Positions 2,691-48,787 of a stretch of 64,000 nucleotides of DNA are shown piece after piece. A program made the position numbers and the translations under genes. Each line of letters opens with the position of its first letter. The first letter of the stretch is position 1. The notes under the pieces were generated by a model. The model was given only the letters and a program-made list of their open reading frames with translations, did not search any database and was not told the origin of the DNA. The DNA comes from an uncultured Gemmataceae bacterium (lineage in GTDB: Bacteria; Planctomycetota; Planctomycetia; Gemmatales; Gemmataceae): NCBI GenBank assembly GCA_963701675.1, contig OY969623.1, positions 6,450,599-6,514,598 on the forward strand. Reading direction: 5' to 3'.

Positions 2691-5600
2691 ATGAACGATC
2701 CGATCAGTATCGACGACGCCGAACTCCTCTCGGAGGACATCGCCGAGGAATACCTGGAACACCTTCACGCCGGCAATGCGCCGGACCGCGCTCGCTGGCT
2801 CGATGCGCACCCTGACATAGCAGAAGTCCTCAACCGCCACTTGTCGGTTATCGAACGCATCCACCGCACGGCACAAGAGTCGAATGGCACCTCAACAGCG
2901 CTCGGCGCGGGTCTCCCGACCCCGCCGCCCGACCACATTGGCCGCTACGCAATTCTCGAAGTCCTCGGCCGTGGCGCATGCGGCACCGTGTATCATGCAT
3001 ACGATCCAAAATTCGATCGCGATGTCGCCCTTAAGGTCCTCCGCCCTGACCTGGCCGCCGATCCGCAATACGGTTCGCGCTTCCGCCGTGAAGCCCGCAT
3101 CGCCGCCCAACTGCGACACCCTCATATCGTCCCGGTTCACGCATCCGGCGAAGAAGATGGCCGAGTTTATCTGGACATGGCCTTCATCCCTGGCGAATCA
3201 CTCGAAGAGCGGCTAGCCGCCGGTCCTCTCTCGTTCGCCGACGCCGCCGACCTTGTCGAAAAACTCGCCGACGCCCTGCATTACGCCCATTCGCAAGGGA
3301 TCATCCATCGGGATGTGAAGCCAAGCAACATTCTGTTGGAGGGGTCAGGGGCCAGGGGCCAGGGGTCAGGAGTCAGAAGTCAGGATCAGGGATCAGAGTC
3401 TTCACTGACCCCTGACCCCTGGCCCCTGACCCCTGTTCTCACCGACTTCGGCCTCGCCCGCCGCGCCGCTGGGGAAGCGTCGTTGACCGAGCACGGCCAG
3501 GTCATCGGCACCCTGGCCTACATGCCGCCGGAACAAGCCCAGGGCGGCGGTCACCAGGCCGACGCCCGCAGCGATGTCTACAGCCTCGGCGCCGTGCTGT
3601 ATCGCTTGCTCAGCGGCCGTGTGCCGTTTCCGGATGACGGGTCATTCGTTTCACAGATTCACCGCATCGTGCACCACGAACCACCGACACCACGCACGGT
3701 GAACCGCGCAGTGCCGCGCGACCTGGAGACAATCTGTTTGAAAGCGATGGCCAAGGATCCGGCCGACCGCTTCACGACGGCGGCGGCGATGGCGGATGAG
3801 CTGCGGCGGTGGCGGAAGGATGAATCGCTGACAATACGGCCGCCGACGTGGTGGGAGAAAGGGCGGCGCTGGGCGCGGCGGAACAGGGCGGTAGCGAATG
3901 TTACGTTCGCTGCGGCAGTGCTGGTCGTGGCTGTCGGATTCCTGGCCCTGCTCGCCTGGCGCAACGCTGTGCTCGAAACCCGCACAAACGCCGAGGCCCA
4001 ATACATCAGGCTACTTTACCAGGCTAGACAACGCATTCTCACACCGATTGTCGGTCGCCGTGTGGAAGGACAACGCCTTCTAGAATCGGTGAAAGTACAC
4101 GGTGCGAGGATGCAAGATGCTGCAAGACGCCATCATCTCGACCTAGTGGCGCGATCGCTCTACGCAATGTCGTTAGGGGTACCGGACTTCGTTGCGAAGG
4201 AGGCCGACACTGTTAAGCTTCCAGAGGTGTTCTGGAAAATGTGGCCAATCGCGCTACATCCCGACGGGAAGGTGATGGTCATCGGCACATACAACGGGCC
4301 GGTGCGTTGGGATCGTGGTGGTTCGCCAAACTTGCCCCCCGATTTGGATCCGAATCTACATCGCCCGCGAATTGCGTTCAGTCCTGAAGGTAACTATCTC
4401 GCTTTCGCGCCGGAGGCAGGTGGCCTGATCCTCTACCCAGGCGACGTAGACACGACCCCAATCGCCAAATGGGCTTCGACAAAGAATGGTACGGTACAGA
4501 CCATCGGCTTTCATCCTGACGGACGTGCCGTGTCGCTGCTTTGCAGCGATGGGACGATCCAATGGCTTTCGGTACCGAATCTAAACGAGGCGTCTGTGTG
4601 GCCCAGCGATTCGACACTTGGGGAGGTGACGGTAGCCGCATTCTCACCCGACGCCTCGCAAATTGCGGTCGGGGACGCAAGCGGCAACGTACGGGTACGA
4701 TTCAGAGACGGCAAACCCATGAAGGTTCACTCTGCCAGCGATGACGCAACGCAGGTGGAGTCATTGGCTTGGTCGCCAGACGCCAAACTTCTTGCCGTCG
4801 GCAGGCGCGACGGCACTGTGGAACTCTGTGAAGCCGACAACGGAAGAATCCGCTGGCGAGGATCCATTTCCGCTACGGGTGTTAGCAATCTGGTCTTTGA
4901 TCCCTTGGGCCGTTGGCTTCTGGGCGGCTGGAGGCATTCCACGCTAAGAACGTGGGACGTGGCGAGCGGCCGCCAGGTCCTGACACTGGATTATTCCACT
5001 CCAATGGGATTCTCGCGTGACGGTAGGACGTTGGCTGTGGGCAATCAAATGAATGCGGCATTCGTGGAAATGGTCCCGCCCGCAACCGTGTGCCCTCTTT
5101 CCGGCCATCGGCGCGCTGTCGAGCATTTGGCTTGGAGCCGAAATGAGCGATTCCTGGTTTCGCTGGATTCCTCATACGAAATTCGTGTTTGGGACCTGGA
5201 GCGTGGCACTTCAATCATGGCCGTTCCGGCGCCACGTAGCGATTCTCAGTTTTTTCCAATGAACGCCCGGGTTGGAATCACTGATGACGGTGCTGTGGTT
5301 GCGTACGCAAGCGCCGGAACCAACGATTCTCACGCCTACATGTACGATGTGGCATCAGGGCACGTGCTCGGCAGCTGGCTGTTGCCAGGCGGTTTTGAAT
5401 CGATGGCGTTCAATGGAAAGGCGTTCGTGCTCGTGCGCGAGGAGTGTGCTTCAGCCGACGCGCCGCGGCAGAGCATCGTCTACGAATGGGCGATAGGACA
5501 TGAACCTCAAAAGCTGCATGCGTTGCGCGAAAGTGAAGCCGGCGACCAGCTAGGGTATTTCGCTAGTGAATTGACTCCGGACGCTCGCTATTTCCGATGG

Positions 5601-6092
5601 TGGGGCCCACGTAAACCGGACGAAAAACTGCGGCTGGAGGTGTACGATGTGGCTGCGAGACGCTGTATTAGGCGCTTTGGCCGGGCCGACTTGCGGGCTC
5701 CCGATGGTGGGCTTGGAGGCCATCTTTCCCCCGACGGTCGACGCTTACTTGTGGCACTTGGCGGAGGAGCCATGACGGCAATCGACCTGATTGATGGCAG
5801 CGAGTCTTATCCGGTGACAGGTTTGGAGTTCTCAGAAAACATGGAACGAACGGCACATTTCGCTGCGCCGAACGAATGGTGCAACTACGACCGTATCCGC
5901 GTATCGTCGCTCGACTCGTCAGGATCGCCTTTGGAACTGTTCAACCTCGATCTCTCAAACATCACCGGGCCGAATGTATGTTATCTCAGCCCCAGCGGCC
6001 GCTATCTTGCGTGGCGCGATGGGACCGGCGGCATCACCATCGCTGATCTACCAGCGCTGGAAACGGCAGTTGGCGGATTCCTAGCCGATTAA
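2691..6092 (+). CDS. Ser/Thr protein kinase (Hanks type) with transmembrane segment and C-terminal WD40/beta-propeller repeats; carries a 31-codon insertion between subdomains VIb and VII
   Basis: GRGACGTVY…ALKVL, HRDVKPSNILL, DFGLAR, YMPPE, DVYSLG; WD-like repeats (LAWSPD…, VWDL…, TWDV…) in the C-terminal half; it sits directly downstream of the ECF sigma gene. Confidence 0.85.
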   Translation: MNDPISIDDAELLSEDIAEEYLEHLHAGNAPDRARWLDAHPDIAEVLNRHLSVIERIHRTAQESNGTSTALGAGLPTPPPDHIGRYAILEVLGRGACGTVYHAYDPKFDRDVALKVLRPDLAADPQYGSRFRREARIAAQLRHPHIVPVHASGEEDGRVYLDMAFIPGESLEERLAAGPLSFADAADLVEKLADALHYAHSQGIIHRDVKPSNILLEGSGARGQGSGVRSQDQGSESSLTPDPWPLTPVLTDFGLARRAAGEASLTEHGQVIGTLAYMPPEQAQGGGHQADARSDVYSLGAVLYRLLSGRVPFPDDGSFVSQIHRIVHHEPPTPRTVNRAVPRDLETICLKAMAKDPADRFTTAAAMADELRRWRKDESLTIRPPTWWEKGRRWARRNRAVANVTFAAAVLVVAVGFLALLAWRNAVLETRTNAEAQYIRLLYQARQRILTPIVGRRVEGQRLLESVKVHGARMQDAARRHHLDLVARSLYAMSLGVPDFVAKEADTVKLPEVFWKMWPIALHPDGKVMVIGTYNGPVRWDRGGSPNLPPDLDPNLHRPRIAFSPEGNYLAFAPEAGGLILYPGDVDTTPIAKWASTKNGTVQTIGFHPDGRAVSLLCSDGTIQWLSVPNLNEASVWPSDSTLGEVTVAAFSPDASQIAVGDASGNVRVRFRDGKPMKVHSASDDATQVESLAWSPDAKLLAVGRRDGTVELCEADNGRIRWRGSISATGVSNLVFDPLGRWLLGGWRHSTLRTWDVASGRQVLTLDYSTPMGFSRDGRTLAVGNQMNAAFVEMVPPATVCPLSGHRRAVEHLAWSRNERFLVSLDSSYEIRVWDLERGTSIMAVPAPRSDSQFFPMNARVGITDDGAVVAYASAGTNDSHAYMYDVASGHVLGSWLLPGGFESMAFNGKAFVLVREECASADAPRQSIVYEWAIGHEPQKLHALRESEAGDQLGYFASELTPDARYFRWWGPRKPDEKLRLEVYDVAARRCIRRFGRADLRAPDGGLGGHLSPDGRRLLVALGGGAMTAIDLIDGSESYPVTGLEFSENMERTAHFAAPNEWCNYDRIRVSSLDSSGSPLELFNLDLSNITGPNVCYLSPSGRYLAWRDGTGGITIADLPALETAVGGFLAD
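3341..3435. repeat. heptamer-repeat palindrome (GGGGYCA)n…(TGRCCCC)n embedded in frame in the kinase CDS
   Basis: AGGGGTCAGGGGCCAGGGGCCAGGGGTCAGG…degenerate copies…CTGACCCCTGACCCCTGGCCCCTGACCCCTG; the arms are reverse complements. Confidence 0.8.
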
Positions 6093-6256: not shown

Positions 6257-8274
6257 ATGTTCTCTCTTCGAAAGCGCTCGCAAGCTACTCAAAGCCACGT
6301 GCGAAAAACGCGTTGGACGTGTCGGCCATCATTCGTCGCTTTGGAAAATCGTTGTCTGCCGTCAACGTTTTCATTGGCCTTCGACTCTCTCCCGAGTGCC
6401 CAAGGCTGGAACTACGCATCAAACGGTCCATCGGAAAACGCCGCCTATTGGGTCGACGGCACTAAGCTAACTCAAAACACAATGGCGACGGGCGTCACTT
6501 ACGCCCAATACAACAAGAATGCTTCGATTGATCCGACCAAAGCGTTTACCATTGAAACTCGCGTCAGAGTGATCGACAGCGAGACTACGGCGTGTTGCGC
6601 CCGGCGACGGCATTTCAGGCAATCGGTGCCACTGGCACCGAGTATTTTGGCTTTGGACTGAACAAGACAACTATCTACGCGCCATACGGTAAAGCTGGTT
6701 CCCTGTTTAATACCATCGACCCCACCCAGTTCCATACGTACCGGATCGAAGCAAACCCGGGCGTGAACGTCAGCATCTTCGTAGACGACGTCCTCCTCGT
6801 TTCGACGGTTCCCCCTCTGGTGGGGTCCGCAAATACTCTCTTACTTGGTAACGCTTCAAGCTTTGAAAACGGTCATGCTGAAGTTACGCACTACAAATTC
6901 ACGCAGGACACCTGCTCCACCGGCGACGATGTCGTCCTCACCTCGATCCGAACCGAGGACTCCCGCCAAATCCTCGTCGATTACGACATCAACAACCCCG
7001 CTCTGGCGGACAAGACATTCAACATCGGCATCTACCGCTCGCCTGACGAGGATTTCGACACGAGCGACGACGTGAAAATCGGATCGGTAACGATTTCAGG
7101 CCCACTGGCGATGGTGGGCCAGTATTTTGACGTGCCTGTAAACTTGGATTTCGACACAGCACTCGCACCAAGTTTCAATCTGAAGTACGTCATCGGCGTT
7201 GCCGATCCTGAGGGCACGCTGGATGGGTTCGGCCTGGATAGCTGCGATGCGCATTTTCGAAAGGTTGTCATTAGCGCTGTGTCCGTTGGCTTCCAGGTAC
7301 CTTGCTTTAGTACTTCTGAACCTGAATGGGTTACCACGATGGCAACTTCACTTAAGCAAGCCGGCTATGATGAAGTCGTTCCGTTCTGGTGGACCAGCTG
7401 CATTCCCTACCCCACCTATGATGATCGCGCGTCGAGCGACCTTTTTAACAGGCTTTCTTTGAAAGCGAGCGGGCTGATTCCGGCATTGGGAGAGAATGAC
7501 TCAATTGACCTGCACTTGATTGGCCACAGCCGCGGTGCTGTTGTCGTCAGCGGCACGATGGAGCTTTGGCAGGAACTCAACATACCTCAAGCAAAAGCCG
7601 GGTACATGAAGTTAACGCTCTTAGACCCCCATCCGGCGACCAACACATACGGGCTAAACGCAAGCATTTCCTCAAAGCCGAAAGCAGATGGTTACAAGGC
7701 GATCCAAGCTCTAATGAATGACGCGCCAATAACAGTCGCGGCGCGCGTGAACGAGGTAGAGGATTTCTGGCAGCGTACACACTACTATGAGGGGTTGCAG
7801 GGTAAGGAAGCAACCGTTAATCTCTGGGGACTTGACCACGAAGATATCAACGTAATGGGATCGCAGACCAACGTCTTTAGTTACAACCTCTCAGCCGCAT
7901 ACGAGTGCGGCAAGATCATTGGTCACACTGAAGTACATGAGTTCTATCAATCCACAATTCCAGGAAGTGGATGCCGATCAATCAAGAACGACACGCGCAA
8001 CACCTCTGAATTCGGCGGCAGGGTCGTCGTCGGCTCCAGTCCAGCGCCGATTCCGCCACCGGATCGGCCGTCTGCCAATTTAGCATTGGCACACAGTGCC
8101 AGCGACCTGATGAATCCCGCCCTTAGTAGCTCGGTGCCGGATTCCGATGCTGCGACGATGGTTGCCAAAACATCATCCGCACAGCCGATTGAACCGCCCA
8201 CACCATGCAGCCGCCTCGCCGCAACCGATTGGTTGACATCCACCATCCCCGACCCACTCGCCCTCGACCTGTAA
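6257..8274 (+). pseudogene. secreted LamG/ConA-like lectin domain fused to an alpha/beta-hydrolase (lipase-like, GHSRG) protein, split by a frameshift between about 6556 and 6661 (or a sequencing error)
   Basis: N-terminal 'FVALENRCLPSTF' motif (the same class as the FG-GAP genes); a LamG-like segment continues across two overlapping frames (ORFs 6134-6661 and 6592-8274); the nucleophile-elbow LIGHSRGAVV lies downstream. Confidence 0.5.
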
Positions 8275-8813: not shown

Positions 8814-8943
8814 GGCTTTGAACGTTCGTTCGCTGCAAGGTATCCGGCCGAAACGAAGAAATATGGCCGAGCGGCGTCTGAAAACCGCAGACCTCCCCGC
8901 ACTGCCGCCAAACGCAACCTAAGTTTCATTAGGCCGCGCCGCC

Positions 8944-10362
8944 GTGTTGCGGTGCTGGGAAGCCGTCCGTACGGTGGGGTACGAAAGTATGATGGGCCGG
9001 GTCTTTCTCGGGCGATATCAAACCGTCCGCCTGTTGGGCGAAGGCGGAATGGGGCGAGTGTACTTGGCACGGCAACTCGACCTGGGTCGGCAGGTCGTCG
9101 TCAAGGTCATGCACGAGCACATTGCCTCCGAGCCGAAGTTTCAGGAGCGTTTTCAACGCGAGACGCTCCTGATGGCCCGTTTTCAACATCCGTATGTCGT
9201 CACGCTGTTCGACGCGTCGCTCAACGATCCGCAAGGACCGTGCATCATCATGGAGTATATCCGCGGCGTCACGCTTGATGCACTCCGCAAAAGCAATCGT
9301 GAAAAGCTGGGCCCCGGTCGCGTCGCACGGCTGCTCGGACAACTGTGCGAAGCCTTGCAAGCCGCCCATGGGCAGGGCATTATCCATCGCGATCTGAAGC
9401 CGTCGAACCTGATGGTGGTCGATTCGGACTCGCCGTACGAAAAGATTAAAATCATGGACTTCGGCCTTGCCCGGCTGATTGGGGAGTCTGCGGTTCGACA
9501 CGGATCATCCACTTGCGGCGATTTCGCCGTAGGCACACCGGCGTACATTTGCCCGGAACAGGTGCGTGGCGAAGCGGTCGATCATCGATCCGATCTCTAC
9601 AGCGTCGGCGTGATCTTGTACGAGCTTCTGACCGGGCGCAAGCCGTTCGTCGGTGAATCGGCGATGGACATTTTGTTGGCGCATGCAACGGAAGAGCCGC
9701 CGCCTCTTACTGAGGTCGACGAGGATTTGGACCTGCCGCCAGGAGTTGAGAAACTCGTACTTGATTGTCTTGCCAAAGACCCGGCACACCGTCCGTCTAG
9801 TGCTCGTGAATTGGCGGAACGATTCGAGACGGCGTTGGCGCGAGAAGACTTGGATTCGGATGCCGTGATTCCCGAAGCTCTGCCGGTCGTGGAGCAGCCG
9901 GAAATCGATAACCCCTCGACGACCGACTCCGACGTATTGGTGTATCGCCTCGAAGCATGGATGCCGGAGTCCATCGCCCTCTACAAGCTCCGCGGCTACA
10001 TGAACGACGTAGGCGGGGACGTGGTCCAATCCGATCCGGGACGTGTGCGCGTATGCATCGGCGGGCCGGGCAGCGCTTATCAACTGCGTGGGCGTGGCTT
10101 ATCGTGGTTGGGATTGAGCCGAAACGCCGGCCGAATCGAAATGGACCTTCGCATGCAACACACCGATCTGGCACGCAGTAATCATCTGCTGATTACGGTG
10201 GTCATGCGCTCTCTCAACGGCAATTCCGCCTTCGACCCGCACTGGCGCACCGTGGCAACTCAAATCTACTGCGACCTGCGGGCGTATTTGATGGGAAAGT
10301 CGGGAGGGGGAGCGGGAGAAGAATTCAGAATTCAGAATTCAGAATTCAGAATCAAAAAATGA
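8944..10362 (+). CDS. Ser/Thr protein kinase with an uncharacterised C-terminal domain (start probably at the MMGRV Met near 8989)
   Basis: LGEGGMGRVYLA…VVVKVM, HRDLKPSNLMV, DFGLARL, GTPAYICPE, DLYSVG. Confidence 0.8.
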   Translation: MLRCWEAVRTVGYESMMGRVFLGRYQTVRLLGEGGMGRVYLARQLDLGRQVVVKVMHEHIASEPKFQERFQRETLLMARFQHPYVVTLFDASLNDPQGPCIIMEYIRGVTLDALRKSNREKLGPGRVARLLGQLCEALQAAHGQGIIHRDLKPSNLMVVDSDSPYEKIKIMDFGLARLIGESAVRHGSSTCGDFAVGTPAYICPEQVRGEAVDHRSDLYSVGVILYELLTGRKPFVGESAMDILLAHATEEPPPLTEVDEDLDLPPGVEKLVLDCLAKDPAHRPSSARELAERFETALAREDLDSDAVIPEALPVVEQPEIDNPSTTDSDVLVYRLEAWMPESIALYKLRGYMNDVGGDVVQSDPGRVRVCIGGPGSAYQLRGRGLSWLGLSRNAGRIEMDLRMQHTDLARSNHLLITVVMRSLNGNSAFDPHWRTVATQIYCDLRAYLMGKSGGGAGEEFRIQNSEFRIKK

Positions 10363-10437
10363 GCAGACTTGTTTCCGATAATGCTTAGGGCAGCCGCACG
10401 ATAGCATTACTCTGAATTCTGAATTCTGAATTCTCAC
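10320..10437. repeat. heptamer-repeat palindrome (GAATTCA)4…(CTGAATT)3 with a nested inner inverted repeat; a candidate bidirectional terminator between convergent genes
   Basis: gaattcagaattcagaattcagaattcagaat…ataatgct…agcattactctgaattctgaattctgaattct; the left arm encodes the C-terminal EEFRIQNSEFRIKK of the kinase. Confidence 0.8.
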
Positions 10438-11870
10438 TAACGAACTTTTGCCTGGAATCTGACCATTCCGCTTTTGCCGGGGGGGAGGTCGCCGCCGATT
10501 TGCCAGCGGAGGGCGAGGGAGCCGCCGTCGTTTTCCTGCGTTGTGAAAACGTTGTCGCGGTCGGAGAGGGCGGTCCCGGGGATGTACTCTAACCGCGGCG
10601 TCAAGCTGTCAGAGACGACGACATTGTTCATGGGCTGGCCGCCGGTGTTCGTGTACTTCAGATAGAACGTGGCGATGTCGCCGACGCGGGCTGCCTTCGG
10701 TTCGCACCACTTGCACAGAAGCAATGGGCCACATGGCGGTTCCTTGATACACACGCCTACGACTTCAACACCCTTCACGACACCGCGTGCCTCGGCCGTT
10801 TCAAGCATCTGTTCGACGCGAAGGAGTCCGGTCAAAGAGTCGATTTCGCTGGGCCGAATTCGCCCGACGGCGGACTCGGGTGCATAGATCTGGAGATTGA
10901 TCTTCGGATTGCGCAGTTCTTCTATTATCACTTGAGCATGCGTCGAGACGGTCGCCTCGGGGTTGACGACGATGCTGTACCCGGCCGGCGTTACTTCGGT
11001 TCGTAGCGCGATAAACCGTGGTGCGAAAATGCAGCAACGGTTTGACACGACAATCCGGCGGCAGCCTTTGCATTCGTACTCGGCGGCGGCGTCGCTAGGA
11101 TCCAGTCCGCGAAGATGTCCGAAATCGCCGAGGCCGACCGGAAGCTTGGTGTCGCCGCCGTCGCAGATGCACTCCTCGAATGCGCCACGTGGGCCGGCAC
11201 TTGGATCATAAATCTGGTGACAGGCCCAGGGCAGCGTAGGAGGTACGAGCGGCTGTGGAATCGCGGCATCTCCCGGGAATTGGATAGTTCCGGGAATTGC
11301 ACTGCGAGCCAATTCGTCGGCATCCGGCAACCGTTCACCAAAACGGAGAATAACCATCGTTCGGCCACAACGACGTGCTTCGTCAAAGATGCAGCGCGTC
11401 GGCAAGACGTCGAGTTCAATGGGTTGGTCACGCTGGGTCGCCACCGGGAAAGCCGTGCACGGGTCTTCCAGGTAGTACACCTTGGTAATGAACGCGCCGG
11501 AAAGGACGCGTTCAATGTCTTCTTTCGAGAATGCGATGGGGACGGGAAATTCCGCCGCATTGACGTACGCTGGATACGCCACGACGCCGCGGACTTCGAC
11601 CGTGGGAAACAACGACAAGCCAGGGCGTCCGGCTATGTCCGTCAGTTGTACGCGATAGATGTATCCTGGGCGCAAGCCGACGGTGACCGGCATGTCAAAC
11701 GCTTGGGCAACCGGATCGCCGTGGTAGAAGAGTGCTCTGGCCTGCGCGGGGCCGGTGAATTTGACATAGAGCAATTGAGTGCCTACACCGGTCCGCACGG
11801 GCCCGGTGGCAATCGTCGCCGCCACGGGGACCGAGAGCACGAACGCAATGGCTAGTAGGGTTTTCTTCAT
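10437..11870 (-). CDS. secreted protein with an N-terminal beta-rich domain shared with the downstream paralogue and a C-terminal DUF11/'conserved repeat domain'-like segment
   Basis: Signal peptide MKKTLLAIAFVLSVPVAAT; C-terminal 'VGDIATFYLKYTNTGGQPMNNVVVSDSLTPRLEYIPGT' is typical of DUF11/CARDB repeats. Confidence 0.55.
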   Translation of the reverse strand: MKKTLLAIAFVLSVPVAATIATGPVRTGVGTQLLYVKFTGPAQARALFYHGDPVAQAFDMPVTVGLRPGYIYRVQLTDIAGRPGLSLFPTVEVRGVVAYPAYVNAAEFPVPIAFSKEDIERVLSGAFITKVYYLEDPCTAFPVATQRDQPIELDVLPTRCIFDEARRCGRTMVILRFGERLPDADELARSAIPGTIQFPGDAAIPQPLVPPTLPWACHQIYDPSAGPRGAFEECICDGGDTKLPVGLGDFGHLRGLDPSDAAAEYECKGCRRIVVSNRCCIFAPRFIALRTEVTPAGYSIVVNPEATVSTHAQVIIEELRNPKINLQIYAPESAVGRIRPSEIDSLTGLLRVEQMLETAEARGVVKGVEVVGVCIKEPPCGPLLLCKWCEPKAARVGDIATFYLKYTNTGGQPMNNVVVSDSLTPRLEYIPGTALSDRDNVFTTQENDGGSLALRWQIGGDLPPGKSGMVRFQAKVR

Positions 11871-11891
11871 GGTTGCGGCAGAACAGGCGAC

Positions 11892-12956
11892 CTACTTTTT
11901 CATGTAAGTGACTGGCTTGATCGCGCCCGACTCCATCATCATTCGGGCCGGCGCCGGCGTTGAACCGGCCGGCAGTCCGCCGTCCATCATCGGGTTGGAG
12001 CCGTCCATCGCCGGTGTGTTCGGTGCTTCGAGGTCGATGTTGCCTACGCGCACGACGGCCAGAATACTGCCGCGACGGCACGCTTCGGCGATCGGGTCAG
12101 CCCCAGGTTCGAGCCGCGTCGAAATGATCTCGCTCGGTCCAGCCGTCGCCAGGTCCTGGAATTGCGGATCGGGCAGATAGATCACCTTCACCAGGTAGTT
12201 TCCGGCTTTGATTTGTGCGAAATCCTCGTCTGTGAACGCGATCGGCACGGCACTGTGAGCGAGGAACACGGCCGTCTTCGCGTTGGCGGGCACCACTTCG
12301 AGTGTCGGATAAACGACCAGGTCGCCCTGGTTCGGAATGTTGCTCAGGCGAAGCCGATATATCGCGCCTTGCAGGAAGTTGTATCGTGCCGGCACTTTGA
12401 GCTGGTTGGCGTCATAGCCCGGTTGCCCGGCCATGCTGGACCCGAACCAGGCGATACGCATGTCGTTCGGGGCCGCGAATCGTATCGAGGTGCGTTGCGA
12501 GGAAACGCCGCCTGGCATACCGTCTGCCATTCCGCCGGTGAGGGCGCCCACAGCGGCCACCGCTCCTGGAGGCGCTCCGGCGCCAACGCCGGACGGGCCC
12601 ATCGGGGAACCCGGCGCCAAGGTCATCATGTTGCCGTAAGCATTGACGGCGGCGCCGCCCGGCGGGCAATTTCCAGCCGAGCACGACCCGCCCCAATGGG
12701 CAGCTTGCATGATCTCCGGCGGCATATGGGAGGCAGTCTTCGCTTTACCCTTGCTCGGCTTCATCGGCGGACCAGAGTTGGCGTAGCACGCCCCGTCTTC
12801 GCACATGTAGCCAGGTTCGGCAAATGGGCCGTACTTGGCCGGTCCGTGTTTAGCGCTGGCGTGGCCGCCGCCGCAACTTGTGCATCCGTGTTTGCTCGCC
12901 GATCGACAACCGCCGAGCATCGCCGCCACCATACAAACCACTGCCAGACGTTTCAT
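11892..12956 (-). CDS. lipoprotein, paralogue of the N-terminal domain of the 10437-11870 gene, with a Gly/Ala/Pro/Met-rich low-complexity region
   Basis: MKRLAVVCMVAAMLGGC lipobox; blocks shared with its neighbour (LYPTVEV / VPIAF..ED / KVIYL.DP). Confidence 0.5.
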   Translation of the reverse strand: MKRLAVVCMVAAMLGGCRSASKHGCTSCGGGHASAKHGPAKYGPFAEPGYMCEDGACYANSGPPMKPSKGKAKTASHMPPEIMQAAHWGGSCSAGNCPPGGAAVNAYGNMMTLAPGSPMGPSGVGAGAPPGAVAAVGALTGGMADGMPGGVSSQRTSIRFAAPNDMRIAWFGSSMAGQPGYDANQLKVPARYNFLQGAIYRLRLSNIPNQGDLVVYPTLEVVPANAKTAVFLAHSAVPIAFTDEDFAQIKAGNYLVKVIYLPDPQFQDLATAGPSEIISTRLEPGADPIAEACRRGSILAVVRVGNIDLEAPNTPAMDGSNPMMDGGLPAGSTPAPARMMMESGAIKPVTYMKK

Positions 12957-13086
12957 GGATTGTCCTCCAGCCGACGCACAAGCGCGTGGACTGCACTGTC
13001 GTCCGTCCATTCTTTTCGTGGTCGTCCGTGGATATACTCGACAGGAGACAAAGCTGAACTTTCGTTAAAAAGCGAAGAACTCCCCC

Positions 13087-38477: not shown

Positions 38478-39029
38478 ATGAAAACCTGGGCAGTTTTGGC
38501 AAGCGCGGTGTTGGCGAGCACGGCTTTCGGACAATCCCCGTCGCCGGAAACATTACCCGCCATGCCGCCGCCGGCCATGCCGTGTGAAGAATGTGCTCCG
38601 GCATGTTCACCCTGTTGGACATTCTCGATTCCGAGAAGGCCAATCCGGACCTGGCTGGCGTGCTGCGACAGCGTGCAAAAATGCCGCGAGTTCCTGTCGT
38701 ACAAATCGACAAGTTGCGGCAGTTGCTGCCCCACGCCGGACCCATCGATCCATCCGCCACTGTACACTTACTTCTGGCCGTTGCACTGCGCCGACGGCAA
38801 CCGCGGCGGGTGCGGCAGCCTAAACGGTATGTGGAACACCAACGTGCATATGACGGAAGAGGGCTTTGCGTCCGCCGGCGTCCCCGTCAGCACCACGCAA
38901 TACTCACACAACGGGCACGCGCCCAAGAACGAGCCCTGGTTCAGGTCGATGACGGCTCGGTTCCGAAGCGAGAAGGCGACGGCATCCAATTCCGGCATCG
39001 TTCCGGTGAGCGGACAAGCGCCTCGTTAA
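38478..39029 (+). CDS. small secreted Cys-rich protein
   Basis: Signal peptide MKTWAVLASAVLASTAFG; 14 or more Cys in CxxC/CC clusters. Confidence 0.4.
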   Translation: MKTWAVLASAVLASTAFGQSPSPETLPAMPPPAMPCEECAPACSPCWTFSIPRRPIRTWLACCDSVQKCREFLSYKSTSCGSCCPTPDPSIHPPLYTYFWPLHCADGNRGGCGSLNGMWNTNVHMTEEGFASAGVPVSTTQYSHNGHAPKNEPWFRSMTARFRSEKATASNSGIVPVSGQAPR

Positions 39030-40027
39030 TCGTGTCGGATTGCTAGATCCGACGGCTTGACGCCTTTCTTGAATCCGCCGAATTTGAACGGAGACGGCCG
39101 AAACTCACCGACGATATCCACCTTGGCTCGCGCCGGTATCTGGCTTTCCATCGCCAGAGCCCAGTAGCAAGCGTTGACCAGCAACCGTCTCAATCCTTCA
39201 CTTTCCAAGTCTTGTGACGCGCCAATGGTGGACGTGAACACGCGCGCTTTCTTCCCCGATGCGGTTTGAAAAGTCTTCGTCCAGGCGATAGGCATCATGG
39301 GATCGTTTTGCTTGCCGGCCGCGGGTTTATCCGTCGCTTGCATTCCCTCCACAACCTGCCCCAGGACCAGCGGTTGGCTAACCCCCGGCAGCGGCAGCCG
39401 GACACCGTAAACGTCGGTCGGTCCCCAGATGTCGCCGTCCTCGATGCCGCGAAGGATTGGGTGGGACTCCTGGCCTTTCACCCGCAAGCCACGGGTGCTT
39501 TGTTTGCCGTGTTGTCCGTGATGGCTGATCCATTTCTCGCCGAGCACCTGCCGACCGAAACCACCTTCCCATTCGTTGCTGTTGTCGGAGTAGCGTGCAT
39601 ATTTCTTGTCGGGCTTGATGTTGAACGCATGGGTGGATGTTCGAATGCCAATGATCGGCTTGCCCGACTCCACGTAGTCGACGATGTGTTTCATTTGCTC
39701 GTCCGGCAGATCGCGGTAACGAGTGAAGATAATCATGAGGTCGGCAGACTTGAGTACGTCCAGCCCGGGAATGTTGTCGTTGATGTTCGGATTGATTGTG
39801 CCGTCCTTCGGGTCGATCGCGAACAAGACGGTGCACTTGAAGCCGTGATGTTTGGCGAGAATCTTCGCCAACTGCGGAAGCGCCTCTTCCGATCGGTATT
39901 CCTCGTCGCCGCTGATGAGGACGATGTGTTTACCCTTTCCAGGTCCCTCGCTACCGTCAACGACAAGCCACGGGTCGGCGGCGAGGAAAGACAAAAGGAT
40001 GAAGGATGAAGGATGAAGGATGAACAT
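39026..40027 (-). CDS. ThuA-like (class I glutamine amidotransferase-like) secreted protein; the signal peptide is encoded by a (GGATGAA)4 tandem heptamer
   Basis: 'HIVLISGDEEYRSEEALPQLAKIL…MIIFTR' is the ThuA core; ATG at 40027 with a GGAG RBS 8 nt upstream. Confidence 0.6.
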   Translation of the reverse strand: MFILHPSSFILLSFLAADPWLVVDGSEGPGKGKHIVLISGDEEYRSEEALPQLAKILAKHHGFKCTVLFAIDPKDGTINPNINDNIPGLDVLKSADLMIIFTRYRDLPDEQMKHIVDYVESGKPIIGIRTSTHAFNIKPDKKYARYSDNSNEWEGGFGRQVLGEKWISHHGQHGKQSTRGLRVKGQESHPILRGIEDGDIWGPTDVYGVRLPLPGVSQPLVLGQVVEGMQATDKPAAGKQNDPMMPIAWTKTFQTASGKKARVFTSTIGASQDLESEGLRRLLVNACYWALAMESQIPARAKVDIVGEFRPSPFKFGGFKKGVKPSDLAIRHD

Positions 40028-40088
40028 CAGTCGTCTCCTTTTCACGACCCGAGGGCCGTTCCGTGGCATTGTATGACGAGGCGCTGTT

Positions 40089-40499
40089 TTAGTTTGCAAG
40101 GGTGCGCGGTGTCCACGGCCAACGAGGCGGCACCAGCACAAACGTGACGAGGACGACTAAGGCAAAGGAGATATGTATGGCATTGAGTGCCTGCGTCGAG
40201 AACTCCACAAAGAGGACTTCATTCAGAAAACGTCCGATGAACGTAGCTTCGGAAACGGACTGGCCGGCGAGGCCGCGGAGGTCGTTTTCCCAGACCGTCA
40301 ACGGGCAATGGACGCCCAAAACGGCTTGCAGTCCGACGCTGGTCATGGCGATAACGTGAGCCAACCGAAACCAGAAGTTTCGGATCCAGGCCCAGCCGCG
40401 AATGGCGCCAACGATGATGACGATTTGCCCGATGCTAATGAACACCACCAAGGCGAAGTGTGCCGCGACCAACGCGTCTGCAAGGTAGCCGAACCACAT
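40089..40499 (-). CDS. DUF2784-like membrane protein
   Basis: MWFGYLADALVAAHFALVVFI…CPLT.WEN, four TM helices. Confidence 0.45.
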   Translation of the reverse strand: MWFGYLADALVAAHFALVVFISIGQIVIIVGAIRGWAWIRNFWFRLAHVIAMTSVGLQAVLGVHCPLTVWENDLRGLAGQSVSEATFIGRFLNEVLFVEFSTQALNAIHISFALVVLVTFVLVPPRWPWTPRTLAN

Positions 40500-46242: not shown

Positions 46243-47637
46243 ATGATCCGACGCACCAGCCAGCTCTTGAGCGCGTGGTTCCTGGTTTGGGACCTGGCGG
46301 TGACGGCCGTCGCCTGGGTTGGTTCCTATTATTTGCGCTTCGATTCCGGTTGGTTCCCCGTTCTCAAAGACACCCCGGACGTTGCTTTATGCTTGCGTAA
46401 TCTTCCCGTCACGTTACTCTGTGCCGCGCTCGCTTACCGCTGGACCGGGCAATACAAACTAAACCGGTTCCGCCGATTTCGTGAAGAACTTCTCGGCGCC
46501 ATTCAGGGCACGGGTTTGATGGTCTTGCTCGTCATGGCGACGACGTTTCTGCGGCAGGATCCTTACGAATCACGGGTCACGATGGCCATCTTTACCATCG
46601 CATCGGCGGTCGGCATTCTAACGGTGCGACGGCTAAGTTGGATGGCACTGCGCGAGCTACGAAGCCGTGGCTACAACCAGACGCGCTCGATCATTGTCGG
46701 CACGGGCCGGGTCGCGCGCCAGACGGCCCGGGCCCTACACCGCCTTAGCTGGCTCGGCATACGAAACATCGGCTACATCGAAGATCACCCAAGCCGATGG
46801 ACCGACGATCTGAATACGCTCGGCACCAGCGCCGATTTACCTGTGTTGATTCAGAAGTACCAGGTTGGACATGTTTTCATCGCGTTGCCCATGAGCCGTT
46901 ACCACGACGCTCGTCGTGTTTTCAACATTCTTTCGCAGAGCATGGTTGAGGTGCGGCTGGTCACCGACGTGCCGACTCTTTCCGGACTTTCGTTGACCAC
47001 GACGAGCTTGGACGGTTTGCCGGTGATCGGGTTGCGCGAGAGTCCGCACTTCGGACTGAACATGCTCGTCAAACGCGTCGTTGACGTGACGGTGTCATTT
47101 CTCCTTCTCATTGTGCTGGTGCCGCTCATGGCACTGCTGGCCATCCTCATTAAGCTCACCAGCCCGGGGCCGATTTTCTACGGGCAGGAGCGATGTGGAC
47201 TGAACGGCGAGGCATTCAACATGCTGAAGTTCCGCAGCATGCGCGTCGACGCGGAAGAGCAAAGCGGGGCCGTGTGGGCACAGAAGGACGACCCGCGCCG
47301 CACCCGTTTGGGCGCGTTTCTGCGCGCCACCAGCTTAGACGAGCTGCCGCAACTCATCAACGTACTCAAAGGCGACATGAGCCTGGTGGGGCCCCGTCCG
47401 GAACGTCCCGTTTTCATTCAGCGTTTTCGGAACACCATCCCGAACTACATGGCCCGCCACTCCGTCAAGGCCGGCATCACCGGATGGGCCCAGGTCCACG
47501 GTTGGCGCGGCAACACATCGCTTCGCAAACGGGTGCAGTACGATCTCTACTACATCACCCATTGGAACCCCTGGCTCGACATCCGCATCCTGTGGATGAC
47601 GCTTTTTCACGGGCTGTTCCATCGAAATGCCTACTAG
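46243..47637 (+). CDS. undecaprenyl-phosphate sugar phosphotransferase (WbaP/WcaJ-type bacterial sugar transferase)
   Basis: N-terminal TM helices and a C-terminal 'KRVVDV…LKFRSM…DELPQLINVLKGDMSLVGPRPE' domain. Confidence 0.8.
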   Translation: MIRRTSQLLSAWFLVWDLAVTAVAWVGSYYLRFDSGWFPVLKDTPDVALCLRNLPVTLLCAALAYRWTGQYKLNRFRRFREELLGAIQGTGLMVLLVMATTFLRQDPYESRVTMAIFTIASAVGILTVRRLSWMALRELRSRGYNQTRSIIVGTGRVARQTARALHRLSWLGIRNIGYIEDHPSRWTDDLNTLGTSADLPVLIQKYQVGHVFIALPMSRYHDARRVFNILSQSMVEVRLVTDVPTLSGLSLTTTSLDGLPVIGLRESPHFGLNMLVKRVVDVTVSFLLLIVLVPLMALLAILIKLTSPGPIFYGQERCGLNGEAFNMLKFRSMRVDAEEQSGAVWAQKDDPRRTRLGAFLRATSLDELPQLINVLKGDMSLVGPRPERPVFIQRFRNTIPNYMARHSVKAGITGWAQVHGWRGNTSLRKRVQYDLYYITHWNPWLDIRILWMTLFHGLFHRNAY

Positions 47638-47767
47638 CAGTTGTCAGTTGTCAGAATTCGTAGTCTCGTAACTGCAATCCATAGCGGCTAGGCACCTGCA
47701 TCCAATATCATTGGAGAAGTGTCCCAGCAACTGACAACTGACAACTGGCAACTGACAACTGCTTGAA
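47637..47767. repeat. heptamer-repeat palindrome (CAGTTGT)n…(CAACTGR)5 filling the sugar-transferase/obg intergenic space
   Basis: gcagttgtcagttgtcag … cagcaactgacaactgacaactggcaactgacaactgc; the right arm ends 5 nt before the obg ATG. Confidence 0.8.
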
Positions 47768-48787
47768 ATGTTTGTCGACCGTGTAACCCTGTATGTCAAA
47801 GGCGGCGATGGCGGCGCGGGCTGCTGTAGCTTTCGGCGCGAGAAGTATGTACCGAAAGGCGGTCCCGACGGCGGCGACGGCGGCGACGGCGGCAGCGTCG
47901 TCATTCGGGCGGTGGCCGGCACGGATAGTCTTGCCGACGTAGTTAATCGCAAGCATTGGCGTGCACCGAAGGGTGGCAGCGGGCGATCGGACAACTGCCA
48001 TGGTCGAAAGGGCCGAGATCTATTCATTCCTGTGCCCCCAGGCACTTTGGTTCTGGATCGGGATCGGGGCCATGTGCTTCGCGACCTCGTCCATCCGGAT
48101 GACGAAGTAACGATTGCCCACGGCGGCCGCGGCGGGCGCGGAAATCGCGCATTTGCAACAGCGACAAATCGTGCGCCACGTGAAACCCAGCCCGGAACTT
48201 CGGGTGAGGAACGCTGGATCGTTCTCGAACTCAAGGTCATTGCCGACGCCGGGCTGATCGGGTTGCCGAACGCCGGCAAGTCGACGCTCTTGAGCCGCCT
48301 CTCGCACGCCCGACCGGAAGTCGCGGATTACCCGTTCACCACCAAACACCCGAATCTTGGCTTGGTCACGATCGGCGAAGAGCGGGCGTTTGTGCTCGCC
48401 GATCTACCCGGACTCATCGAAGGTGCTCACGAAGGCATCGGCCTGGGCCACGAGTTCCTCCGTCACGTCGAACGCACTCGTGTTCTGGTGCATCTTGTTG
48501 AGCCGTTGCCGCTGGACGGCAGCGATCCGGTGAAAAACTACCATGCGATACGACAAGAGTTGACACTTCATCGTCACGGACTTGAGCAAAAGCCGGAGAT
48601 CGTCGCCGTGAGCAAAGCCGAATTGACGGGCAGCGCGGAGGTGCGCGAGCGGCTGGAGAAAGACCTCGGGCGTGACGTGCTGGCGGTGTCCTCGGCAACG
48701 GGCCGCGGACTGGCGGAGCTGGTCGGCGCGGTCAGTCGACAGTTACGAGCATCCCAAAACCACATGCTTGATGAGACCCGCGCATGA
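47768..48787 (+). CDS. obg: GTPase Obg/CgtA
   Basis: MFVDRVTLYVKGGDGGAGCCSFRREK…, a GGDGGDGG glycine-rich loop, and the G1-G4 motifs. Confidence 0.9.
   Translation: MFVDRVTLYVKGGDGGAGCCSFRREKYVPKGGPDGGDGGDGGSVVIRAVAGTDSLADVVNRKHWRAPKGGSGRSDNCHGRKGRDLFIPVPPGTLVLDRDRGHVLRDLVHPDDEVTIAHGGRGGRGNRAFATATNRAPRETQPGTSGEERWIVLELKVIADAGLIGLPNAGKSTLLSRLSHARPEVADYPFTTKHPNLGLVTIGEERAFVLADLPGLIEGAHEGIGLGHEFLRHVERTRVLVHLVEPLPLDGSDPVKNYHAIRQELTLHRHGLEQKPEIVAVSKAELTGSAEVRERLEKDLGRDVLAVSSATGRGLAELVGAVSRQLRASQNHMLDETRA

Follow-up and report, generated by a model that had tools for sequence, protein, structure and literature searches.

A heptamer-repeat hairpin between the convergent ends of a kinase gene and a CLIPPER-domain gene, probably one of a class of repeat-arm hairpins that turn over in place in Gemmataceae

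A palindrome built of tandem heptamers lies at positions 10320-10434 of a 64,000-nucleotide stretch of DNA (contig OY969623.1; hereafter the window) from an uncultured Gemmataceae bacterium, where a kinase gene, open reading frame (ORF) 8944-10362, converges with a gene whose orthologues carry the CLIPPER domain (PF01345). Comparison with the DNA of related loci suggests that this element is probably one of a lineage-wide class of repeat-arm hairpins, each consisting of an A-rich/T-rich core with flanks that have grown into complementary tandem arrays and that turn over in place.

Read directly, the element consists of four AGAATTC units, AGAATC, six A residues with TGAGCAGACTTGTTTCCGA, the inner inverted repeat TAATGCT-N17-AGCATTA, a single C, three TCTGAAT units and a final TCT (Table 1). 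The palindrome of the original prediction was borne out by Tandem Repeats Finder (TRF), by perfect pairing over 24 bp and by fold z-scores near -7, with the copy numbers corrected from 4 and 3 to 4.7 and 3.4. Pairing in several registers, also predicted, is evident from two perfect sets of 24-nt inverted arms reported by a repeat finder (10320-10343 or 10327-10350 against 10411-10434), which show 100% complementarity at a separation of 58-67 nt. The arms cannot be ascribed to chance, because GAATTCAGAATTCA, a 14-mer of the repeat, has 13 matches with at most 2 mismatches where 0.36 are expected, and 0 of 100 shuffles reach 13. Computation of the folding energy, which had been proposed as a check, gave strongly stable structures on both strands: -48.4 kcal/mol for RNA of the plus strand (z = -7.2) and -50.8 kcal/mol for the minus strand (z = -6.95), with -30.3 kcal/mol for DNA (z = -6.6), none of which was equalled by any shuffle. 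The second inverted repeat noted earlier within the loop is present, but it is weak evidence by itself, as such a pair has by rough estimate a chance of ~0.1 of occurring in a 58-nt loop; among the loci fetched, it was found in this genome only. The GC content of the element is 0.37 (0.29 in the arm), compared with 0.59 for the window, and the purine fraction of the 5' arm is 0.62. Rfam returned only sub-threshold matches to plant and animal microRNA precursors (24 bits versus gathering scores of 75-211), which is a generic response to any long hairpin. The EcoRI-like GAATTC core of each unit is present as described but incidental: GAATTC occurs 25 times elsewhere in the window, above composition by our estimate, and a link to site avoidance or restriction-modification was therefore rejected.

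Table 1. Features of the hairpin at 10320-10434 and of its sister elements in the window
Feature	Position	Strand	Description
5' arm	10320-10352	+	(AGAATTC)x4.7, 100% matches (TRF); translated in the kinase frame as EFRIQNSEFRI
A-rich inner core	10353-10378	+	Degenerate AGAATC passing into six A residues, then a weak hairpin AAAUGAG/CUUGUUU; holds the kinase stop codon TGA (10360-10362)
Inner hairpin TAATGCT-N17-AGCATTA	10379-10409	+	Arms 10379-10385 and 10403-10409; in the minimum free energy structure of both strands
3' arm	10411-10434	+	(TCTGAAT)x3.4, 100% matches (TRF); exact complement of the 5' arm
Stop codon TAG of the converging CLIPPER-domain gene (10437-11870)	10437-10439	-	2 nt from the right arm
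Sister element A	3340-3435	+	(AGGGGTC)x8.3 / (CTGACCC)x4.4; about -75 to -80 kcal/mol; in frame in kinase ORF 2691-6092
Sister element D	47638-47761	+	(CAGTTGT)x2.4 / (CAACTGA)x4.9; -47 kcal/mol
Solo array	39995-40024	-	Perfect (AAGGATG)x4.3; FILHPSSFIL near the N-terminus of ORF 39026-40141

The earlier placement of the left arm within the final codons of the kinase gene, with the arm forming the C-terminal residues of the protein, agrees with the translation of the ORF, which ends ...GEEFRIQNSEFRIKK (also given as ...GKSGGGAGEEFRIQNSEFRIKK). The right arm, which had been said to end at the converging stop codon, adjoins it but is separated from it by two nucleotides. Because (AGAATTC)n has no stop codon in any of the three frames, the kinase ORF runs through the arm and gains a non-conserved tail. 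Stops in the remaining two frames are found at ~10377 (TAA) and 10386 (TAG), and the right arm, (TCTGAAT)n, contains TGA in all three frames. Simulation of 0-8 units produced three tails only (...RIKK, ...QNQKMSRLVSDNA and ...SESKNEQTCFR), because each frame meets a stop codon of its own (TGA, TAA or TAG) in the loop, so that a stop is reached within ~4 to 13 codons whatever the copy number. A check of orthologue tails, proposed with the original prediction, covered 59 C-termini among 120 kinase homologues listed (best non-identical homologues 56-71% identical): EFRIQNSEFRI is present in none of the 59, which share a conserved ...CDLR[AG]YLMGxxG followed by 0-12 variable residues. With the inspected orthologues lacking the tail and only short alternative tails available, the tail is incidental, a by-product of the repeat DNA that lies past the conserved part of the protein.

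Further hairpins of this kind, about 15 in number, were found in ~1.7 Mb of related Gemmataceae DNA. The relatives comprised 80 Gemmataceae loci (1.17 Mb) retrieved via alignment of the kinase, with a best hit 63% identical, and a second, independent set of 80 metagenome loci, of which none among the matches listed was closer than 62% over its full length. The census of repeats and hairpins was taken over the 64-kb window and 82 related loci, an inverted partner being counted within 200 nt of an array. Among strong short tandem arrays, those of period 7 are the largest class (n = 44), and 26 of the 44 have an inverted partner, compared with 0 of 46 arrays of periods 6, 12 and 15 (0/7, 0/25 and 0/14, respectively; Fisher p = 4e-11); partners were also found for 6 of 14 arrays of period 8 and 7 of 29 of period 9. 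In the metagenome set, 5 of 12 arrays of period 7 are paired, as is one array of period 14 and no other. The units are specific to their loci and include GAATGCA, AGTTCTG, TGAAAAG, CAGTGGC, AAATTGC, ATTGCAG, GAATGCG, GACACGA, AGTGGCG, AGGGATG and GAAGGCG.

Our own inverted-repeat scan of these sequences yielded 169 long hairpins, 20 with periodic arms (period 7 in 14, period 8 in three, period 9 in two and period 10 in one) and 149 others. The others are GC-rich palindromes, several with GTAG heads, that resemble superfamilies of repetitive extragenic palindromic (REP) sequences. The repeat-arm hairpins differ from them in the purine fraction of the 5' arm (0.71 versus 0.55), in GC content (0.48 versus 0.67) and in how often the arm has an A-rich motif at its inner end (12 of 20 versus 14 of 149; p = 8e-7), and 12 of the 20 lie between co-directional genes, close to the upstream stop codon. 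Alignment of the cores gives the consensus GRRTGAAAGA...loop...TCTTTC, where the window element has GAATCAAAAAATGAG. With its period of 7 and an inner end, AGAATCAAAAAATGAG, that aligns with the cores of loci L015, L017, L022, L023 and L103, the window element has the features of the class, its core match being looser than that of most members. The core is to be understood as a looser A-rich motif, because a search for the exact core GAAAGAC-N(4-34)-GTCTTTC proved too strict, with hits in only two loci, and GAAAGAC alone occurs at chance level in the window. The repeat unit usually resembles the 7 nt beside the core: in L015, GAATGCA (three copies) is followed by GAATGAA (two copies) and AGA..., and in the window a series of CAGAATT units is followed by CAGAATC and AAAAAA. 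The repeat-based construction, considered unusual in the original prediction, is thus not unique: it is the defining trait of a class within this lineage, and Xanthomonas is already known to have paired arrays of heptamers (PMC4692102).

Comparison of orthologous sites indicates how these elements change. In the spacer between purN and a kinase gene, L015, L017 and L023 have a common flank (GGNCGNCGAGT), a core of the form GA[AG]TGAAAGA...TTTCA[CT]TC and a conserved motif downstream, with different arms: L015 has (GAATGCA)n, both arms of L017 are (AGTTCTG)4, and L023 has a left arm of (AGTTCTG)4 facing ~1.5 units on the right. The final residues of PurN are encoded by the arm in each case. The same spacer has unrelated GC hairpins in L021 and L027 and is without an element of this kind in L003 and L005. 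The convergent arrangement of the kinase and CLIPPER-domain genes is conserved in 11 of the loci fetched, and nine of them have some hairpin in a spacer of 28-112 nt, with unrelated sequences. Among these nine, the element of L022 has arms of period 8 (GGGGTGAR) and a GAAAGA core, and its loop, GAGCAGTTGTCTTTC, resembles the loop of the window element, GAGCAGACTTGTTTC, which suggests that the two elements may derive from a common ancestral core; in L050, a minimal TGAAAAAGGGT-cctg-ACACCTTTTTCA is all that is present. In L103, an element with (AGGGATG)n arms and a TAAAGAC...GTCTT core follows the kinase stop codon at a distance of 7 nt. The closest relatives include those of Joint Genome Institute sample 3300047160 (69-71% identical), and the closest syntenic relatives with readable DNA are L085/L086 (65% identical, full synteny), in which the two stop codons are 7 nt apart and no hairpin is present. 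Variant units occur in matching outer-to-inner order on both arms in L022, L015, L070 and sister element A of the window, and the arms have unequal copy numbers in the window element (4.7/3.4), in element A (8.3/4.4), in sister element D (2.4/4.9) and in L092 (3.9/19.6). A search by Blast for homologous copies of the loop or the whole element, which covered the window and ~1.2 Mb of relatives, found none. Because core and flank are kept while arms change, variants are mirrored, copy numbers are unequal and no second copy was found in ~1.2 Mb, local slippage and copying between arms are indicated, not transposition.

The arms of the element in L092 (12737-12909) are extremely unequal in copy number: (GAAGGCG)x3.9 faces (CTTCCGC)x19.6 across an 8-nt loop. 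In L070, near-identical heptamer hairpins (10356-10434 and 10500-10581) lie 144 nt apart with the flank GCCTGAAGT on both, the whole element being duplicated in tandem.

In the window itself, heptamer hairpins with paired arms number three and there is a single solo array, all four with different units; exact runs of period 7 outnumber those of each other period from 4 to 12. If translated, arms would yield the peptides EEFRIQNSEFRIKK and GSGARGQGSGVR...LTPDPWPLTPV. Element A encodes a 26-residue surplus loop between HRDVKPSN and DFG, in the beta7-beta8 turn of a Ser/Thr kinase domain, where distant relatives have 12 residues (ILLDERGEPQLTDFG) and the window protein has 38. The four closest homologues of this kinase (64-48% identical) have 53, 32, 47 and 36 residues there, of unrelated sequence, and the DNA of two of these orthologues has hairpins of other heptamers at the matching spot: L084 (858-998) with GGCAGTA-type arms, a GGGAAAAAC core and a folding energy of -83.9 kcal/mol, and L083 (1104-1199) with GATTGCA-type arms and -25.7 kcal/mol. 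Element A and the orthologous inserts are in frame and without stop codons (5/5), and the single in-frame TGA of the right arm of element A is replaced by TGG (3420-3422), a variant unit that is mirrored in the left arm; an intron or excised sequence was rejected on these grounds. The native codons GAG GGG TCA GGG (EGSG) could have been the seed of the GGGGTCA unit. A rule by which all units would be NNN+TCAG, with a second arm giving TGA in three frames, was also rejected, since it fits only the three paired elements of the window and is broken in relatives by GAATGCA, ATTGCAG, GACACGA, CAGTGGC and others. Element D occupies the whole spacer from the stop codon of a sugar-transferase-like ORF (46243-47637) to the ATG of obg at 47768, ending 6 nt before the start; this is where the 5' untranslated or ribosome-binding region of obg would be. 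For the solo array, no inverted partner was found. Its product, FILHPSSFIL, makes up codons 2-11, part of an N-terminal stretch that is hydrophobic and resembles a signal peptide; gain or loss of a single unit here would shift the frame of the gene. Its AAGGATG unit is also that of the paired hairpin in L103 (7382-7456), downstream of the kinase orthologue.

A mechanism consistent with these patterns would begin with duplication, by replication slippage, of the 7 nt beside an A-rich core (here CAGAATC beside AAAAAA). The resulting array would then be copied to the other arm, or corrected against it, through intrastrand template switching of the kind known for quasipalindromes, and out-of-register pairing of the repeat arms would allow each arm to lengthen or shorten alone; such independent change in arm length is a reason to favour turnover in place over transposition. 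Transcripts of either gene would be expected to end in, or pass through, an AU-rich stem of 24-33 bp. Long perfect double-stranded RNA is cut by RNase III, and the predicted behaviour of the hairpin is that of a REP-type 3' cap, that is, a barrier to exonucleases, possibly a substrate of RNase III, and at most a weak or non-canonical terminator; a dedicated bidirectional intrinsic terminator is not expected.

Several points weigh against this explanation. Slippage and template switching in this organism are deduced from sequence patterns, the gene contexts depend on our own crude ORF calls, and the proposed orthology of the window and L022 cores depends on ~14 matching bases. The preference for period 7 has no account in the model. 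Mirrored variants and the maintenance of pairing are equally expected under selection for a functional stem; the recurrence of a hairpin at this gene end in 9 of 11 syntenic loci hints at function over neutrality, as does the retention of a hairpin at one codon position of a kinase across orthologues 51-64% identical. The persistence of element A is the main observation that a purely neutral model fits uncomfortably. Heptamer hairpins might instead be no debris of mutation but be made and maintained by a dedicated process that is independent of sequence, or by selection on structure, with a regulatory or genome-maintenance role. This would explain why the stem outlasts its sequence, why hairpins recur at the same gene ends, and why a stop-free, in-frame copy is kept at one codon position of a Ser/Thr-kinase catalytic domain in orthologues at 48-64% identity; it seems rather unlikely at present. 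If it were true, it would imply a role for RNA or single-stranded DNA structure in Gemmataceae, and perhaps also for the unexplained heptamer repeats of Xanthomonas and cyanobacteria.

The original prediction was of a bidirectional intrinsic terminator, for which there is support only in part, and the location of the element is indeed that of a terminator, exactly between the converging stop codons 10360-10362 and 10437-10439, with some strong hairpin in 9 of 11 syntenic spacers despite unrelated sequence, a hairpin just past the stop codon in nearly every kinase orthologue, and a very stable fold on both strands. In the class as a whole, a downstream T-run on the transcribed strand accompanies 5 of 12 repeat-arm hairpins between co-directional genes, compared with 7 of 67 other hairpins (p = 0.015), and cores such as those of L020 (GGAAAAGAGGGG-CAAC-CCCTCTTTTCC) and L063 (GAAAGACACCGG-TCCGGTCTTTC) resemble classic terminators with an A-tract, a GC-stem and a T-tract. 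The intrinsic type does not fit, however: instead of a short GC-rich stem (~5-14 bp) with a loop of 3-8 nt, the window element has a 24-bp AU-rich stem of AGAAUUC units around an interior of ~60 nt, and no U-run adjoins the stem, the plus strand continuing as CACTAACGAACTTTTG with four T residues beginning 11 nt past the stem and the minus strand as TCTCCCGCTCCC. A consensus scan found no terminators in 9800-11000. Over positions 1-60000 of the window, consensus hairpins with T-runs are not enriched relative to shuffles (17, 26 and 18 found versus 23.5, 22.6 and 19.7 expected) and sigma-70-like promoters are at or below expectation, and the organism probably starts and ends transcription by other signals. 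There remains a non-canonical bidirectional terminator, with a long stem and no need of a U-tract, selected to insulate the convergent genes from each other, for which repeats would be an easy way to build a stem. This is a possible explanation, but a considerably less probable one than membership in a class of hairpins that turn over in place. Hairpins are not a general way for genes to end here, because there are only four long ones in the 64-kb window and no enrichment of canonical terminators; in L085/L086, where synteny is preserved, the spacer is 7 nt long and the hairpin is evidently dispensable, being absent; and other members of the class occur within the reading frame of a kinase domain and 6 nt ahead of the obg start codon.

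A non-autonomous mobile element, resembling a miniature inverted-repeat transposable element (MITE), a REP or a Rickettsia palindromic element, could have entered the kinase gene at its 3' end, the heptamer arrays serving as its terminal inverted repeats. The inverted arms, the GC content of 0.37 in a window of 0.59, the lack of the element in the closest syntenic relatives (L085/L086), the in-frame copy within an ORF, which recalls Rickettsia palindromic elements, and the presence in relatives of GTAG-type REPs, a type of sequence described elsewhere (PMC3733652), could all be taken in this sense. Nevertheless, the arm sequence differs in every copy, the loops are unrelated, no second copy of the loop or the element was found in ~1.2 Mb, and no target-site duplication is visible, the flanks GGGAGA|...|CACTAA being without the direct repeat that accompanies the inverted arms of a MITE. 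Orthologous sites retain core and flank while the arms change, as in evolution in place, and the EGSG seed of element A looks native to its kinase. Insertion of a mobile element is accordingly very improbable. It is also highly doubtful that the repeats are contingency loci, in which phase-variable changes of copy number are selected to switch the kinase tail or the genes at the sister loci. A change of one unit would shift the frame among three alternative tails, as the simulation showed, and in the solo array it would switch the gene off, but the kinase tail lies beyond the end of the conserved domain and is short and variable in all inspected orthologues, the inverted partner and the stem would not be accounted for, and Rehm et al. 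found no link of such repeats to genes of the cell surface or adaptation (PMC4692102).

Among known systems, the paired heptameric simple sequence repeats (SSRs) of Xanthomonas are the closest. Xanthomonas GGGAATC and Nostoc GGGGA[CT]T repeats consist of two to ~26 tandem 7-nt units (Rehm et al. 2015, PMC4692102), and 70-75 cases of closely spaced arrays on opposite strands, able to form stem-loops, were described in Xanthomonas, where the repeats favour co-directional spacers, 0-50 bp from or overlapping a stop codon, and are described as having no association with mobile elements. The window element shares with them the head-to-tail 7-nt units, the close convergent arrays and the proximity to or overlap with a stop codon, and the placement of the Gemmataceae class between co-directional genes near the upstream stop is likewise reported for the Xanthomonas heptamers (PMC4692102). 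In Xanthomonas, however, a single G-rich unit (GGGNATC) is used throughout the genome and is interpreted through G-quadruplexes (PMC4692102), whereas the units here are locus-specific, mostly A/T-rich and without G-runs, so that only the pairing into hairpins applies. In the sections of that paper that were searched, there was no mention of a common A-rich core, of orthologous sites that differ in their unit or of copies translated in frame inside a conserved domain (PMC4692102). What differs here from the known heptamer repeats is the combination of locus-specific, mostly AT-rich units, a common A-rich core, unit change at orthologous sites and in-frame persistence in a catalytic domain.

Heptanucleotide units are also characteristic of the short tandemly repeated repetitive (STRR) sequences of cyanobacteria. 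Three heptanucleotides of Calothrix are mentioned by Rehm et al. (PMC4692102), and among the long simple repeats of many bacteria heptamers rank first in abundance, a connection with polymerase slippage having been suggested (Mrazek 2007, summarised in PMC4679880). The TAACTGA repeats of Beggiatoaceae, Cyanobacteria and Bacteroidetes are abundant between genes, occur in 2-6 or more copies, often abut start or stop codons and are sometimes translated (MacGregor 2015, PMC4679880); they were proposed as sites for a translational regulator, and a Beggiatoa genome has one inverted case among 170 repeat sets (PMC4679880). The CAACTGA unit of element D is one base from TAACTGA, but the STRR and TAACTGA repeats are direct arrays of one conserved unit, whereas the Gemmataceae arrays are as a rule paired with an inverted partner and have no conserved unit. 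REP superfamilies have been reported from Planctomycetes also (PMC3733652), as extragenic hairpins at gene ends with hypothesised roles in termination and mRNA stabilisation. REPs and bacterial interspersed mosaic elements (BIMEs) are high-copy palindromes with a conserved sequence of 20-40 bp, a GTAG/CGTC tag (PMC3733652) and a link to REP-associated tyrosine transposases (RAYTs), from which the window element differs in having tandem-repeat arms, no tag and, in the window and ~1.2 Mb of relatives, no second copy. Template switching homogenises and expands the arms of inverted repeats (PMC5941160), with perfection and extension of inverted repeats described also in PMC13100816 and PMC7202029. 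Quasipalindrome template switching fits the mirrored variant units of the Gemmataceae hairpins. It has been described for ordinary short inverted repeats (PMC5941160, PMC7202029, PMC13100816); its combination with slippage of tandem units in both arms is our own inference. No relevant account of heptamer or hairpin repeats in planctomycetes emerged from searches of the literature.

Element A and its orthologues bear comparison with another system. Rickettsia palindromic elements are in-frame palindromic insertions into ORFs and form a homologous mobile family. Like them, element A and its orthologous inserts are hairpin DNA translated in frame as a surface loop of a functional protein, but the orthologous inserts here are unrelated in sequence and apparently grew from native codons.

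Units that are specific to a locus, at orthologous sites that can be compared, expose the process by which heptanucleotide repeats change, with a core that is kept, arms that are remade, variants that are mirrored from arm to arm and copy numbers that differ. For genome annotation, it follows that C-terminal tails, residues of signal peptides and a 26-residue kinase loop are by-products of such DNA, that repeats capable of shifting the frame occur within genes, and that a strong hairpin at a gene end is insufficient by itself for the label of terminator.

Some further observations were made at these loci. GC-rich palindromes, several of them (C)GTAG-headed, are present in L040 (5706-5764, 9704-9766 and 14246-14458), L051 (6105-6160) and L013 (2083-2142), and a REP-like palindrome lies inside the loop of the heptamer hairpin of L022 (~6930-7005); no GTAG-type REP-like palindrome was seen in the 64-kb window. 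In L010 (18226-18261), a contig of a planctomycete metagenome-assembled genome has (AACCCTA)x5.1, complementary to TTTAGGG, the telomere unit of plant type, which may be due to chance or contamination. Next to the window element, positions 10437-13010 hold two tandem minus-strand genes (477 and 372 amino acids) with a common motif (YRVQLTDIAGRPGLSLFPTVEVRG / YRLRLSNIPNQGDLVVYPTLEVV), which are paralogues; orthologues of the 477-residue product carry the CLIPPER domain, and the gene pair and the following 307-residue gene are syntenic in L085/L086. Upstream of the kinase orthologues, the motif TTTGTGACCTACACTTGCA is conserved ~45-60 nt before the start codon in many Gemmataceae loci (for example, L015 at ~9940-9960), with the version CAACCTAAGTTTCATTAGG at ~8920-8940 in the window, and may be a promoter or an element of the 5' untranslated region.

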